This document shows, piece after piece, positions 18,178 through 29,087 of a stretch of 29,166 nucleotides of DNA. How positions within the stretch are numbered: position 1 is the first letter of the stretch; the number at the start of each line of letters is the position of its first letter. Source of the stretch: an uncultured archaeon (lineage in GTDB: Archaea > Iainarchaeota > Iainarchaeia > Iainarchaeales > GCA-2688035); assembly GCA_964354805.1 (NCBI GenBank), contig CAYHBD010000033.1, forward strand, positions 1 through 29,166, given 5' to 3'. The notes beneath the pieces were generated by a model. It saw only the letters and a list, made by a program, of their open reading frames with translations, was not told the origin of the DNA and did no database searches. The position numbers were made by a program, and so were the translations under genes.

Positions 18178-19308
18178 GTGCTGTTAGTGCAGCAAGTAGT
18201 TCAAAGAGCAGTTAAGCGGGCAAAGGCTTTGCCTGCAGTGAAAAGAAAGCCGATAAAGGCAACTCAGGATAACGAAGAGCTAATTAAGTTGCTTGAAACA
18301 GCCAAGGCAAAAATCAGGGTTGTTGGAGTGGGAGGCGGAGGCTGCAACACCATTGAGAGAATGACCGAAATCGGAATAACGGGAGCGGAAACATTTGCAG
18401 TCAACACCGATGCCCAGGATTTGCTTAACACTGTTGCCGACAAAAAGGTTTTAATCGGCAGAAACTTAACAAGAGGGCTTGGCAGTGGCTCAGACCCTAG
18501 CGTTGGGGAAGGCGCTGCAAAGGAAAGCCAGGAAGAGCTTGAAAGTGTTTTGGAAGACAGCGATTTGCTTTTCATCACATGCGGCTTGGGCGGCGGCACT
18601 GGAACAGGTGCTGCGCCTGTTATTGCCGAAATCGGAAAGCACATGAAAGCGCTTACAATAGGGGTTGTCACAATTCCCTTCACTGTTGAAGGGAGAAAGA
18701 GAATGGAGAACGCTTTGGGCGGCCTGGGGAATTTGCGCAAAAACACTGACACTGTTATTGTCATTCCAAACGACAAGATTCTGGAGATTGCCCCTGATTT
18801 GCCTGTGAATGCAGCATTCAAGGTTGCTGACGAAGTCCTGACAAATGCAGTAAAGGGAATTACCGAAATGGTTACAAAGCCCGGATTAATTAACTTGGAT
18901 TACGCTGATTTGCGGACAATTTTAAGCAGGGGCGGTGCAGCAATGATTGGCCTTGGAGAAAGCCACAGCACTGAGCAAGGAGAAGCTAGGGCGTTGGAAG
19001 CAGTTGAAAACGCTTTGACATCGCCGCTTTTGGATGTTGACATAAGCTGTGCAAACAGGGCCCTGATAAATGTAATCGGCGGTGCAGACATGACCCTGAG
19101 GGAAGCCGAAATGATTGTTGAAACAGTCAGCAGCAAGATAAGCGACAACGCCCACATAATCTGGGGAGCAATGATTGACGAGAACATGTCGAAGAACCAG
19201 ATTCAGGCAATGGTTGTAATAGCAGGCGGAAAGTTCCCTTACTTGGAAGACACTGACAAAGTCAATTTGGCAGAGCCAATCGATTTGGGAATAGAATTTA
19301 CTGGGTAA
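18178..19308 (+). CDS. ftsZ: Cell division protein FtsZ (exact start uncertain)
   Basis: VVGVGGGGCN, NTDAQDL, GLGGGTGTGAAP, PGLINLDYAD; ftsZ-secE-spt5 synteny. Confidence 0.98.
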   Translation: MLLVQQVVQRAVKRAKALPAVKRKPIKATQDNEELIKLLETAKAKIRVVGVGGGGCNTIERMTEIGITGAETFAVNTDAQDLLNTVADKKVLIGRNLTRGLGSGSDPSVGEGAAKESQEELESVLEDSDLLFITCGLGGGTGTGAAPVIAEIGKHMKALTIGVVTIPFTVEGRKRMENALGGLGNLRKNTDTVIVIPNDKILEIAPDLPVNAAFKVADEVLTNAVKGITEMVTKPGLINLDYADLRTILSRGGAAMIGLGESHSTEQGEARALEAVENALTSPLLDVDISCANRALINVIGGADMTLREAEMIVETVSSKISDNAHIIWGAMIDENMSKNQIQAMVVIAGGKFPYLEDTDKVNLAEPIDLGIEFTG

Positions 19309-19360
19309 AGGGCTGCCAAAGGGAAGCCGATTGATCTGGGGAATAGAGTTTACTGGATGA
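19273..19360 (+). repeat. Tandem synonymous copy of the ftsZ 3' end
   Basis: CCA ATC GAT TTG GGA ATA GAA TTT ACT GGG TAA vs CCG ATT GAT CTG GG(G)A ATA GAG TTT ACT GGA TGA. Confidence 0.88.
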
Positions 19361-19447
19361 AATAGTGAAAATTGGCTAAAGCAAAACCCACTTAAAACTT
19401 TTTCTTTATTCTTTTTAATAATTCTTTACATGATTCAGGTGGTTTGA

Positions 19448-19642
19448 ATGCAATTAAACATTAGTTCAACGTTGCGCAGCTTTGTTGATTCGAGCAAGCG
19501 TGTCTTGATTATTGCAAAGAAGCCAACTTGGGAGGAATTCCAGGTAATGGCAAAGGTCACTGGAATAGGGGTAATAATAATCGGGGTAATCGCCTACGTT
19601 ATTTACCTGATTTTCGCGTTTAGCGGAATCGGCGGCGCTTAG
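19448..19642 (+). CDS. secE: Protein translocase subunit SecE/Sec61-gamma
   Basis: RVLIIAKKPTWEEF..AKVTGIG plus TM helix; SD AGGTGG. Confidence 0.95.
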   Translation: MQLNISSTLRSFVDSSKRVLIIAKKPTWEEFQVMAKVTGIGVIIIGVIAYVIYLIFAFSGIGGA

Positions 19643-25503: not shown

Positions 25504-25971
25504 ATGATTGCTGAATGGCTGATGATTGAAAGGCTGCTGATCAGTGCTGTTATGGGCGGCCTGATTGGCGTTGAAAGGCAGATGCACGAAAAGCCCGCTG
25601 GCTTGAGAACCCATGTGCTTGTTTGCATGGGCGCAACCCTTTTCACTCTTCTCTCATTGTCTTTTTCCAACTCGGACGGATCAGCAGTTGATGTCAGTAG
25701 GGTTGCTGCAGGTGTTGTAACAGGAATCGGCTTTTTGGCTGCAGGCAGCATTTTCAGGGAAAAGGAAAGAGTCAGGGGCCTGACAACTGCAGCAGACCTT
25801 TGGGTTATTGCTGCAATCGGCCTGAGCATTGGCTTGGGCTATTACAGCGTTGCCGTTGTTGCAACAATTATTACTTTGATTATTTTAATGATAGGCAGGG
25901 TTTTTGATAATTATTTGGACAGAAAGGCAATGACCCTAGAGCAAAAAAACAAGCCGCCTTTTTTTAGCTGA
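25504..25971 (+). CDS. MgtC/SapB family membrane protein
   Basis: GGLIGVER..KPAGLRTH, RVAAGVVTGIGFLAAG, GLTTAA. Confidence 0.93.
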   Translation: MIAEWLMIERLLISAVMGGLIGVERQMHEKPAGLRTHVLVCMGATLFTLLSLSFSNSDGSAVDVSRVAAGVVTGIGFLAAGSIFREKERVRGLTTAADLWVIAAIGLSIGLGYYSVAVVATIITLIILMIGRVFDNYLDRKAMTLEQKNKPPFFS

Positions 25972-26047
25972 CTTCAAGCTGTTTTACCGTTGCCCTTGGC
26001 TAAAGTCGGCAGCAGTTCAGCTGACTTCAAGCTGTTTTACTGTTGCC
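25964..26047 (-). repeat. Tandem copy of the smc 3' end
   Basis: GCA ACA GTA AAA CAG CTT GAA GTC AGC TGA vs GCA ACG GTA AAA CAG CTT GAA GTC AGC TAA; offset 53. Confidence 0.92.
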
Positions 26048-29022
26048 TCGCCTTTCTCGATTTTTTCCCTCAGCTTTAATCCAATGACGCTGCTTTTGTC
26101 CTTGCTCACTGCCACGCCGATTATCTGGTCTGCTCCCTGGATCAGTGGATCGTTGTGGGTTATTGCAATGAACTGGCTTTGCTTGCTGACTTCCTTGATT
26201 ATTTTAACCAGCTTCATTGAATTCTCCTTGTCCAATGCTGCATCAGCCTCGTCAAAAATATAGAATGGCGCAGGCTCGTACAATTGGATTGCGAAAAGGA
26301 AAGCAAGCGCTGTAAGGGTTTTCTCACCGCCAGACATTGAATCAATGTTTTTGATGTTCTCTCCCTTGTGCTTTGCCTCAATTAACAAGCCTGCTTCAAG
26401 CGGTTCCTCTGGCTTGCTCAGGCTCAATCTGCCTTCCCCTGCAAACAGGTTCCTGAACATCTCGCCGAAATTCCTGTTCAATGCATCAAAGCACTGCATG
26501 AAAATGTTCTTCCTTTTCACATCAATCTTTTCAATCATTTCCAATACGGCAAGCCTTTCTTTGTCCAGCAGGGCAACCTTCTCCCTAACATCCTTGACCT
26601 CTGCAGCCAGCTGCTCGAAAGATTCAATGGCTTTCAGGTTAATTGCGCCCATTTCGCTGATTTTTTTGTCAATTTCATTAATCCTGGGCTGCAGCGCGTG
26701 CCAGTCTGCTTTAGCCAGCTTGAGCACATCAGTAAACTGCTTTGCCTCCTCCTGCAAATCAGCCAGCCTAACCTGCATTTTGCTTTTCTCAATCTGCAGG
26801 TTGTTTTCATCCATCTGGGCCTGCCTCAGCTTCCGCTCCTGTTTTTTCGCCCTGAGCAGCAATTCCTCGATTCTCTCTTCCATCGCATCCCTTTCGGCTG
26901 CTGCTTTTTTGTTCCCTTTCTCAACCTTGTTCAGTTCATCCTCCAATTCATTGATTTTCGCGTCAGCGTGCTGCAGCCTTTTCTTCGTTTCCTCTATTCC
27001 GGCGATTATTTCCCTGTTCTCTTTCTGCACTGCCTGCTGCAGCTGCATCAAACCATTCCTCTGCCTTGACAATTGTACGATTGTTTTTCCTTCAATTGCA
27101 GCCTTCTCCTGCTGCAGTGCATTCAGCTTCCCGTGCAATTCAATCTCTTTCTCGCTGATTTCCTGCAATTCATTCACTGCAGCAGCATCGCTCAACCTGC
27201 GCCTCTGGGCTGCAATCTGGTTCAGTTCTGCCTGCTTTGCATTTGCCTCTGATTCAAGCAGCACAATCTCAGCTGTTTTCTTCTCAACACCTGCACCCTG
27301 CACGCCTGCCTTTGCAGCCGAGATTTTTTCCATGCTCTCTTTTAACTGCGCCTTCAATTCATCAAAATCCCTTAACTGATACAGCAATTCCCTTTCCTTT
27401 TCAGCAGCTTCCCTCAGCTCCCGCTCTTTTTTCAATGCATCAGCCTTCTTTTCAGCTGCTGCACTTTCCCTTTCAAGCATCTTCTTCAATTCTGCTTCCT
27501 TGCTTTTAATCAGCTGCAGCCTTTTTTCTTTCCTCAGCTCGCTTTCGCAAACAGGGCACAGAGCGCTGCTTTTGTTCAATAAGCCGATTGTTTCATTCAG
27601 GTTCTTTTTCCCTAGTTCAACTGCCTTTATCTCATGCAGCAGCCGCTCATGCTGCTGCTCTGCAACAGCAATCTTTTCAGCCAGCTTTCCGAATTTTCTC
27701 TGCAGCACCTGCAGCAGTTCGCTGGCGTTCTGCTTTTCCGCAAGCTTTTCCTCAATTCTTTTCTGCATTGCAGCCAGTTCCTGCAATTGCTTTCCCTGCA
27801 ATGCAATCCCGTGCTGCATTACCCGCAATTCGCTTACTGCCTTCACTCTTTTCTCGTTCAGTTCGCGCATTGCAGCATTCAATTGCTGCTCCTTTGAATG
27901 AATTTCCTGCAGCTCGGCAGCTTTCCCCTGCTGGCTCGACTGCAATTTTGCCTTCCTCTGCTGCAAATCGGCAACCTGCTGCTGTAAAGGGGGCAATTCC
28001 TCCATTATCTGCTTTACCCTGCTTTTTTCACTGTCAGTTTCCTTTGCAATAGCGTTTGCTTCAGCCTCTGCCTCTTCAACCCTCCTGTTGTTCCTTGCAA
28101 TCAGGCCTTTGTTTCCCTCAATCCTTTCAACCAGCTGGCTTTTCTCGCTTTTAGCTTCCTCGAGCTTTGAGCCAATTGTTGAATAAATCTTTTCGCTCGC
28201 GCTCAGCAGCTCATCTCCGAGGCGCTTTGCCTCCTGCCTTAATTTTTCAGTTTCAGCATTTGCCTGGTCGAGCTGCTGCTGCTCTTCGTTCTGCTGCTTT
28301 TCAAGCAATGCAAGCCCTTGATTTGTTTCAAGCATGCCCTTGTTTATTTCATCAATCTCATGCGCCAGCAATGTTGCCTTTGCCTGCTTCCTTTCCAGCT
28401 CAAGTTGCTTGAACAAAACAGCCGCTTCCCTTTCATGCTGCAGTTCCTGCAGGTAGTTCTCCCTTTCCTGCATGACAATGCCTGCATCCCTGAGCTTTAT
28501 GTCAACCTTCTCCAGATTTTTCAGCGCCTCTTCTTTCTTCAAATCAAACTCCTGCAATCCGGCAAGCTCGTCAACAATCTGCCTTCTCTCCAATGCATTC
28601 ATTTCAACAATCCTTGTTACATCGCCTTGCACAACAATGTTGTGCCCATCAGGCTTCACCCCCAATTCAAGCAGAAGCGAGCTTATTTCCCCCAGTGTTT
28701 TCCTCTGCCCATCCAGCCTGTAAACACATTTTCCCTGCTTGTCAATAAGCCTTTCAATAACATAATCCTTGTGGTCGTGCTTTAACGCCAGCTCTACCTT
28801 TGCATAGTTCTCAACAGCGCTGTTGTTCACCAATTCGCTTAATCTGCCTGCCCTCAAAGCCTTCAAGCTAGTAATGCCCATTGCGAAAAGCAGCGCATCC
28901 AGAATATTGCTCTTGCCGCTCCCGTTGCCGCCGACAATGCAGGTAAAGCCATTGCTCAGGGGAATGTCCGCTTTCTTAAAGCTCTTGAAGTTTCGCAAAA
29001 CAAGGCGATGCAGCTTGACCAT
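26017..29022 (-). CDS. smc: Chromosome segregation ATPase Smc with central CPVC zinc-hook motif (1001 aa)
   Basis: NFKSF, Walker A GGNGSGKSN, VVQGDV Q-loop, MSGGEKTL, PAPFYIFDEADAALD, QFIAITH; SD GGTGA before ATG 29022. Confidence 0.9.
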   Translation of the reverse strand: MVKLHRLVLRNFKSFKKADIPLSNGFTCIVGGNGSGKSNILDALLFAMGITSLKALRAGRLSELVNNSAVENYAKVELALKHDHKDYVIERLIDKQGKCVYRLDGQRKTLGEISSLLLELGVKPDGHNIVVQGDVTRIVEMNALERRQIVDELAGLQEFDLKKEEALKNLEKVDIKLRDAGIVMQERENYLQELQHEREAAVLFKQLELERKQAKATLLAHEIDEINKGMLETNQGLALLEKQQNEEQQQLDQANAETEKLRQEAKRLGDELLSASEKIYSTIGSKLEEAKSEKSQLVERIEGNKGLIARNNRRVEEAEAEANAIAKETDSEKSRVKQIMEELPPLQQQVADLQQRKAKLQSSQQGKAAELQEIHSKEQQLNAAMRELNEKRVKAVSELRVMQHGIALQGKQLQELAAMQKRIEEKLAEKQNASELLQVLQRKFGKLAEKIAVAEQQHERLLHEIKAVELGKKNLNETIGLLNKSSALCPVCESELRKEKRLQLIKSKEAELKKMLERESAAAEKKADALKKERELREAAEKERELLYQLRDFDELKAQLKESMEKISAAKAGVQGAGVEKKTAEIVLLESEANAKQAELNQIAAQRRRLSDAAAVNELQEISEKEIELHGKLNALQQEKAAIEGKTIVQLSRQRNGLMQLQQAVQKENREIIAGIEETKKRLQHADAKINELEDELNKVEKGNKKAAAERDAMEERIEELLLRAKKQERKLRQAQMDENNLQIEKSKMQVRLADLQEEAKQFTDVLKLAKADWHALQPRINEIDKKISEMGAINLKAIESFEQLAAEVKDVREKVALLDKERLAVLEMIEKIDVKRKNIFMQCFDALNRNFGEMFRNLFAGEGRLSLSKPEEPLEAGLLIEAKHKGENIKNIDSMSGGEKTLTALAFLFAIQLYEPAPFYIFDEADAALDKENSMKLVKIIKEVSKQSQFIAITHNDPLIQGADQIIGVAVSKDKSSVIGLKLREKIEKGEATVKQLEVS

Positions 29023-29087
29023 AATACGCTCACCAAGCAATAAAGGCAATTAATTGATAATATAAGAGAATAAATAACCCATTTAAA

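Follow-up and report, generated by a model that had tools for sequence, protein, structure and literature searches.

An untranslated copy of the ftsZ gene end in an Iainarchaeota genome: a relic of microhomology-bounded duplication in which a diverged allele was probably involved

The DNA analysed here (the window) is a stretch of 29,166 nt that represents contig C33 of a MAG of the Iainarchaeota ('Diapherotrites', DPANN). The MAG comprises 1.38 Mb in 49 contigs, with a completeness of 88.5% and a contamination of 0.37%. An FtsZ1-type ftsZ gene (18178 to 19308, + strand) was recognized in the window from its open reading frame, the Pfam domains Tubulin and FtsZ_C, and homologues with the same tail; in the database record of the contig its start is placed three codons downstream, at 18187. 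The gene opens the classic archaeal cluster ftsZ-secE-nusG-L11-L1, and secE, the next gene in the list of open reading frames, occupies 19448 to 19642 (+ strand). The gap between the two is 139 nt, as against 62–73 nt in most relatives of the family. The encoded protein ends in EPIDLGIEFTG, with the stop codon at 19308, and the tail (P)IDLGIEF(TG) is common to the 120 listed FtsZ homologues (8,000 scored).

Two features of the FtsZ proteins themselves were seen in passing. Residue 338 (window positions 19186–19194), in the context DENMSKNQ, is Ser; Pro stands at this position in the closest relatives and in most of the 120 listed homologues, with Ala or Val in a minority. One homologue from JGI (P0059, 409 aa) does not stop at the usual DLGIEFAD but continues into a hydrophobic extension of low complexity, which points to the loss of a stop codon or to a sequencing error in its contig.

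The end of ftsZ is found twice. The functional end (copy 1, 19276 to 19308, + strand) consists of the last 10 codons and the TAA of ftsZ and reads CCA ATC GAT TTG GGA ATA GAA TTT ACT GGG TAA (PIDLGIEFTG and stop). The second (copy 2, 19327 to 19360, + strand) is an untranslated tail relic with a TGA stop, CCG ATT GAT CTG GG[G]A ATA GAG TTT ACT GGA TGA, in which the bracketed letter marks an extra G within the run at 19338–19341. The six substitutions and the extra G reported by the first-pass annotation (CCA/CCG, ATC/ATT, TTG/CTG, GAA/GAG, GGG/GGA and TAA/TGA) are all there, although the stretch that it described as 11 codons is strictly 10 sense codons and a stop. All six are transitions and all are silent: four fall on third positions, one on the first position of a Leu codon, and one turns a stop into another stop. 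The match is above chance (local score 17, versus a maximum of 16 among about 3,800 non-cognate pairs of tail and downstream DNA from the same genome). Copy 2 starts 20 nt past the ftsZ stop and is in frame with ftsZ (an offset of 51 nt, or 17 codons) up to the extra G; reading on past the stop gives RAAKGKPIDLG, after which the frame shifts.

The geometry of the repeat is that of a microhomology-bounded unit. The tetranucleotide AGCC lies directly before the duplicated tail (19274 to 19277, + strand) and again at 19325–19328, exactly 51 nt away, so that it borders both units, which is the signature of such a unit. The DNA between the ftsZ stop and the second AGCC, which it includes, is a spacer of native post-stop intergenic sequence (19309 to 19328, + strand). 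A possible second spacer can be read after copy 2 (19361 to 19383, + strand), with a degenerate third arm, AAGCA, at about 19379–19383. This assignment is weak, since the stretch resembles the spacer of the closest relative only when indels are allowed and is not significant on shuffling; a third, older relic after copy 2 is likewise not significant in the shuffling test (P = 0.55). Copy 2 has no match in Rfam, and its fold is not unusual (z-score -0.69). It is non-coding and without a function of its own, in short a harmless scar.

Among the relatives found, JGI contig Ga0315275_10113706 (hereafter L043) is the closest; its FtsZ is 99% identical in amino acids over residues 119–373 at a DNA divergence of 8.5%. 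L043 has a single ftsZ tail and lacks copy 2, which is also missing from 19 genomes of the family and from all but one of about 85 related loci. The 20 nt after the L043 stop agree with the window spacer at 14 of 20 positions, and the spacer is therefore native intergenic DNA and not the linker of another allele. The idea that it was an AAKGK-PIDLG linker was rejected on this homology, and a search of 215 phylum genomes found no KGK-PIDLG reading. Of the six sites that distinguish the copies, L043 has the base of copy 1 at five and that of copy 2 at the remaining one, so that five changes, all of them silent, fall on the branch of the relic. Third-position divergence from L043 is alike on both flanks (ftsZ 20%, secE 11%, nusG 14%, L11 20%); any foreign tract would thus be about 120 nt at most, and the possibility of a wholly foreign flank was ruled out. 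The replacement of the resident ftsZ by an allele of another strain, as the first-pass annotation had proposed, is accordingly not visible on the scale of the whole gene.

A decayed ftsZ tail copy of its own was seen in L026 (JGI Ga0172364_10026746, 2143–2220), which belongs to another lineage (86% amino-acid identity). It lies 20 nt past the stop at an offset of about 50, matches at 25 of 29 bases with one gap, and has CAA in place of the TAA stop. The 10-mer GGGCAAGGCA, with which the L026 relic ends (2192–2232), recurs in the ftsZ-secE gap of L043 (771–891; shuffle P = 0.0025), and the same gap of L043 contains an internal repeat of AATTAAAGCC. As for a decayed relic in L043, the matches are only 10 nt long (P = 0.02 and 0.0025). 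These short matches are weak hints of an older relic common to L026 and L043 at this site.

How unusual a silent-only difference is depends on which copy is taken to have changed, and three calculations were made. If the relic were neutral and any type of substitution were allowed, the silent fraction would be 0.28, giving P of about 0.002 for the five changes on its branch; with transitions only, the fraction is 0.36 and P about 0.006. Without polarity, where the relic decays freely and the working copy changes only silently, the fraction is 0.44 and P is 0.44^6 = 0.007. All three values concern 11 codons only, in a pair that was picked for its silent look. Copy 1 differs from relatives at the family and genus level at just 2–5 of 33 bases, which means that even the silent sites of the working tail change slowly; the bulk of the differences would therefore be expected to come from the relic, and at all codon positions, so that the neutral model fits worse still. 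Between the spacer parts of the two units the divergence is nearly random, and yet about 24 non-silent sites of the relic are untouched. The argument of the first-pass annotation that neutral drift would hardly give silent-only differences thus stands, with five of the six on the relic branch. Changes that are silent relative to both the functional tail and L043 point to a relic that diverged as the working end of another allele and, as far as the two tails and their relatives can tell, copy 2 most likely evolved as the working tail of another ftsZ allele.

The donor of such a tail was searched for in several collections. The first-pass annotation had proposed a search of related genomes for an ftsZ allele ending with the codons of the copy; none was found among about 85 related ftsZ tails, the nearest of which differ from the relic at 4 of 33 positions, or in the GTDB representative genomes, which were searched with two degenerate patterns. 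A pattern search of JGI metagenome contigs did not recover the junction. The two paralogous FtsZ proteins of the same genome end in SDLGIDYLR and SELDLGYA; these tails are different, so the genome holds no source for copy 2, and an origin from a paralogous ftsZ was ruled out. The donor was thus missing from these collections; a former role of the copy as the coding end of a diverged allele, as the first-pass annotation proposed, is nevertheless likelier than not.

The ftsZ locus is one of many of its kind in this genome. When the last 60 nt of each gene were compared with the 400 nt downstream, with the 99.9th percentile of non-cognate pairs as the threshold, echoes of the tail were recognized for 78 of 1,256 genes (6.2%), and echoes of the head, in which the first codons are repeated upstream, for 42 of 1,235. 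The offsets are nearly all 41–72 nt, with a median of about 53, and most echoes other than that of ftsZ are out of frame (offsets of, for example, 53, 58 and 59). Several are clean tandem units that continue beyond the stop codon (e.g., C30 32170–32880 and C42 41170–42114); an apparent rule that echoes always end at the stop codon was discarded as an artefact of cutting the query there. TRF reported 120 repeats with a period of at least 20, of which 57 lie within the non-coding 12% of the genome or extend across its borders; for most of those inside genes, the period is a multiple of three. Among the relatives sampled, echoes exist in 7 of 369 genes, fewer than in this MAG (Fisher P = 5 × 10-4). 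One of these relatives (G005) has four tail echoes at offsets of 38–56 and, since echoes exist in other assemblies (L026 and G005), the phenomenon is not peculiar to this one.

Most of the echoes look like ordinary decaying duplicates. The 37 informative pairs together have 70 silent and 119 non-silent differences, where 79 silent differences are expected from duplication followed by decay of one copy and 50 under full neutrality, so that the pooled count is near the former. A similar bias at other gene tails, on which the first-pass annotation had made its reading depend, is nevertheless present. The ratio of silent to non-silent differences is 8:0 for orc1/cdc6 (C9 147846–149171; P = 0.0014), 7:1 for an HTH_20 gene (C9 108355–108909; P = 0.004) and 6:0 for ftsZ (P = 0.007), and there are smaller all-silent pairs at the phosphoglucomutase gene PGM (3:0, P = 0.043), glmS (3:0, P = 0.086) and the SMC gene of the window (2:0, P = 0.17). 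The echoes of orc1/cdc6 and the HTH_20 gene, over 14–16 codons, are the strongest silent-only ones in the genome. Three pairs with P < 0.01 are found among the 37, versus 0.4 expected (Poisson P of about 0.006), which argues for a minority class of echoes with an allelic origin; this class is probably real, and ftsZ is probably a member of it.

Some of the other echoes have features of their own. The SMC gene (26017–29049, - strand) has a tail echo at 25966–25994, 53 nt downstream, in which 28 of 29 bases are identical, the sole mismatch is silent, and the stop has changed from TGA to TAA; this echo overlaps the end of a convergent open reading frame (25504–25971). A dispersed hairpin element, GCCTTTCTTTCT AA AGAAAGAAAGCC followed by TCGTGAAAGAAAG, exists in at least eight copies in the genome (C16 23275–23331, C9 82690–82746, C18 234–272, C11 2313–2351, C2 29866–29904, C16 27405–27446, C28 57722–57750 and C45 1–26). 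Two of the copies lie between exact direct repeats of a gene tail, 27–28 nt in length, and one of them appears to supply the stop codon; the element may be a miniature mobile element with a long target duplication. A common inserted element in the spacers of the echoes was considered and rejected, as only two echoes flank the shared hairpin and the ftsZ spacer is unique by blastn.

Taking the locus and the genome together, we give a little better than even odds (about 55%) to the reading that the second tail is the relic of a microhomology-bounded duplication of the ftsZ end in which recombination with a diverged allele was probably involved. A unit of 51 nt (the last 31 nt of ftsZ, the stop and 20 nt of intergenic DNA) would have come to lie twice in tandem, with the junction at the 4-nt AGCC. 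Since the stop is retained in the first unit, the FtsZ protein stays the same and selection cannot act on the second unit; as dead DNA, the latter would later have gained the frameshifting G. The two units would not both be descended from one sequence in one lineage; this recombination step, its direction and its donor are what we infer from the silent-only pattern.

Two routes to this arrangement can be envisaged. In the first, a single step, DNA from a diverged relative would be joined out of register to the resident chromosome at AGCC, with a homology anchor on one side, which would be a case of homology-facilitated illegitimate recombination. In the second, an ordinary microhomology-mediated tandem duplication would be followed by a homologous exchange that overwrites one of the units with a diverged allele. 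The two-step route would fit the many plain duplicates of the genome and the one-step route would better explain the strongly different spacer parts, and both appear compatible with the ftsZ sequence.

The rival that survives best is a plain microhomology-mediated tandem duplication, by slippage or flap mis-ligation, within one lineage and followed by vertical decay, in which the all-silent outcome was luck. We regard it as a minority possibility that nonetheless deserves to be taken seriously. The first-pass annotation had excluded slippage, and in this it went too far: the AGCC arms 51 nt apart, the native spacer, the step of about 50 nt that recurs in 78 tail and 42 head echoes, the several clean tandem units that run past the stop, and the pooled 70:119 (79 silent expected) all fit a plain duplication. 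Moreover, the ftsZ pair was selected by its look, so that a correction for looking elsewhere is due; about 0.3 such silent pairs are expected among some 78 echoes, and one could be luck. Against this stand the P values of about 0.007 without polarity and 0.002–0.006 when polarized by L043, the untouched non-silent sites beside near-randomly diverged spacers, the slow working tail, which predicts relic changes at all codon positions, and the 8:0 of orc1/cdc6, by which the silent-only class is shown to be real.

It is also conceivable, though doubtful, that gene borders in this lineage are duplicated or exchanged in steps of about 50 nt by a lineage-specific process, of which the ftsZ relic would be one product and in which the fixed length would reflect a molecular ruler. 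Speculatively, the ruler might be long Okazaki flaps that are covered by RPA and evade FEN1, or DNA wrapped on histones that sets the phase of breaks; genes for NucS and one histone are present in the genome, and no Ku was found. Under such a process, the silent-only subset of echoes would be the record of frequent imprecise exchange between diverged DPANN lineages.

An artefact of assembly or polishing, by which the gene ends of two co-occurring strains were laid head to tail in the consensus of the MAG, is improbable. The MAG is in 49 contigs, diverged relatives (L043 and the 97%-identical proteins P0001, MDP2973515.1, and P0121, from contigs of 1.2 kb) are present in environmental samples, the echo density of 6.2% exceeds the 7 of 369 in the sampled relatives, and the JGI contigs did not yield the junction, all of which would suit an artefact. 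However, 4 nt is too little overlap for a de Bruijn or overlap assembler to join two paths, a typical read is longer than the whole structure (about 90 nt), and contamination is as low as 0.37%. Independent assemblies have like echoes (L026 at ftsZ itself, and G005), and many of the echoes have decayed with indels, as is expected of real old DNA.

That the second tail is or was translated, either in an ancestral FtsZ with two motifs, the stop having arisen later, or in a two-tailed isoform made by read-through and frameshifting, is very hard to credit. In its favour, the offset is a whole 17 codons, the spacer is open and in frame (RAAKGK) to the extra G, and the tail may well be the partner-binding end of this FtsZ, by analogy only with an archaeal SepF-anchor study in which the conserved C-terminal tail of FtsZ reportedly binds SepF. 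However, among the 120 listed homologues, some 119 of which have readable tails, there is no case of two motifs, and an ancestral FtsZ with tandem motifs was rejected on this ground. L043 and the 19 family genomes are without the copy, the extra G breaks the frame, and the other echoes of the genome are mostly out of frame.

By itself the relic is inert and FtsZ is intact; its value is that of a fossil, in which the spelling of a formerly functional allele is preserved. It probably records an exchange of DNA between diverged relatives, to judge from the codons that it retains, and frozen copies of gene ends such as this can reveal recombination between diverged uncultured DPANN lineages without population data. 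Together with the dozens of echoes and the step of about 50 nt, it points to an unusually active process of short duplication or imprecise recombination in the lineage. For annotators, the apparent second gene ends in this genome are scars and not genes. The single ftsZ locus is of low novelty, a known kind of scar, and it is the genome-wide pattern that deserves study at the population level.

Among known systems, a programmed read-through or frameshift extension does not match the ftsZ locus, as the extension is missing in L043, the 19 family genomes and the 120 listed homologues and its frame is broken by the extra G. The template and variable repeats (TR/VR) of diversity-generating retroelements resemble it in that a non-coding near-copy of a gene 3' end lies just downstream. 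However, the changes at ftsZ (A>G, C>T, T>C, A>G, G>A and A>G) are all silent and not specific to adenine, and dozens of unrelated genes have the same pattern. The duplication of att sites by integrative elements also leaves a partial copy of a gene end displaced beyond the intact one, but no element lies between the ftsZ copies, only the 20-nt native intergenic spacer.

In the Rhs, CDI and T6SS effector loci, C-terminal displacement leaves orphan 3' ends (PMC5361080, and PMC2935791 as cited there). As would be the case at ftsZ, the incoming allele brings its 3' end and stop, and the old end is pushed downstream, where it is untranslated. This situation is different from that of ftsZ in that the displaced ends encode different toxins, with immunity genes, and are adaptive, whereas both ftsZ ends encode the same housekeeping peptide and nothing lies between them.

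Microhomology-mediated tandem duplication (MTD) has been described in bacteria, archaea and fungi (PMC8639346, PMC13167724). It is like the ftsZ locus in having a short direct repeat at the unit borders and a second unit that is non-functional, and adjacent units of equal length may be a further likeness; such duplications persist outside coding sequence because selection purges them from genes. At ftsZ the tail parts are adjacent and 51 nt apart, with the second spacer after copy 2 only weakly recognizable, and the border repeat is AGCC at 19274–19277 and 19325–19328, with the degenerate AAGCA near the expected third site. However, the units of an MTD start out identical, and decay of the non-functional one should reach all codon positions, whereas in the coding-derived part of the dead ftsZ unit 6 of 6 differences are silent (P = 0.002–0.007) and the spacer parts have strongly diverged. 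The tight clustering of the echoes of this genome at about 50 nt is likewise unlike MTD.

Homology-facilitated illegitimate recombination is known from Acinetobacter, S. pneumoniae, P. stutzeri and E. coli conjugation (PMC3240628; also PMC122324 and PMC122325, as cited in PMC5361080), and in PMC5361080 it is discussed for displaced 3' ends; its experimental proof is in bacteria only. Unlike in these cases, donor markers are present in neither flank of the ftsZ relic, and the inserted tract would be unusually short (35–120 nt). As for an origin of one side of the joint in another genome, the silent-only divergence implies another allele, although no donor was found and the flanks are equidistant from L043. 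The likeness lies in the joint itself: the process uses a microhomology of a few bases (3–10 nt) beside a homologous anchor, and at ftsZ the AGCC joint lies between the conserved ftsZ and secE. It can merge the sequences of two diverged genomes, making small insertions or duplications at the border.
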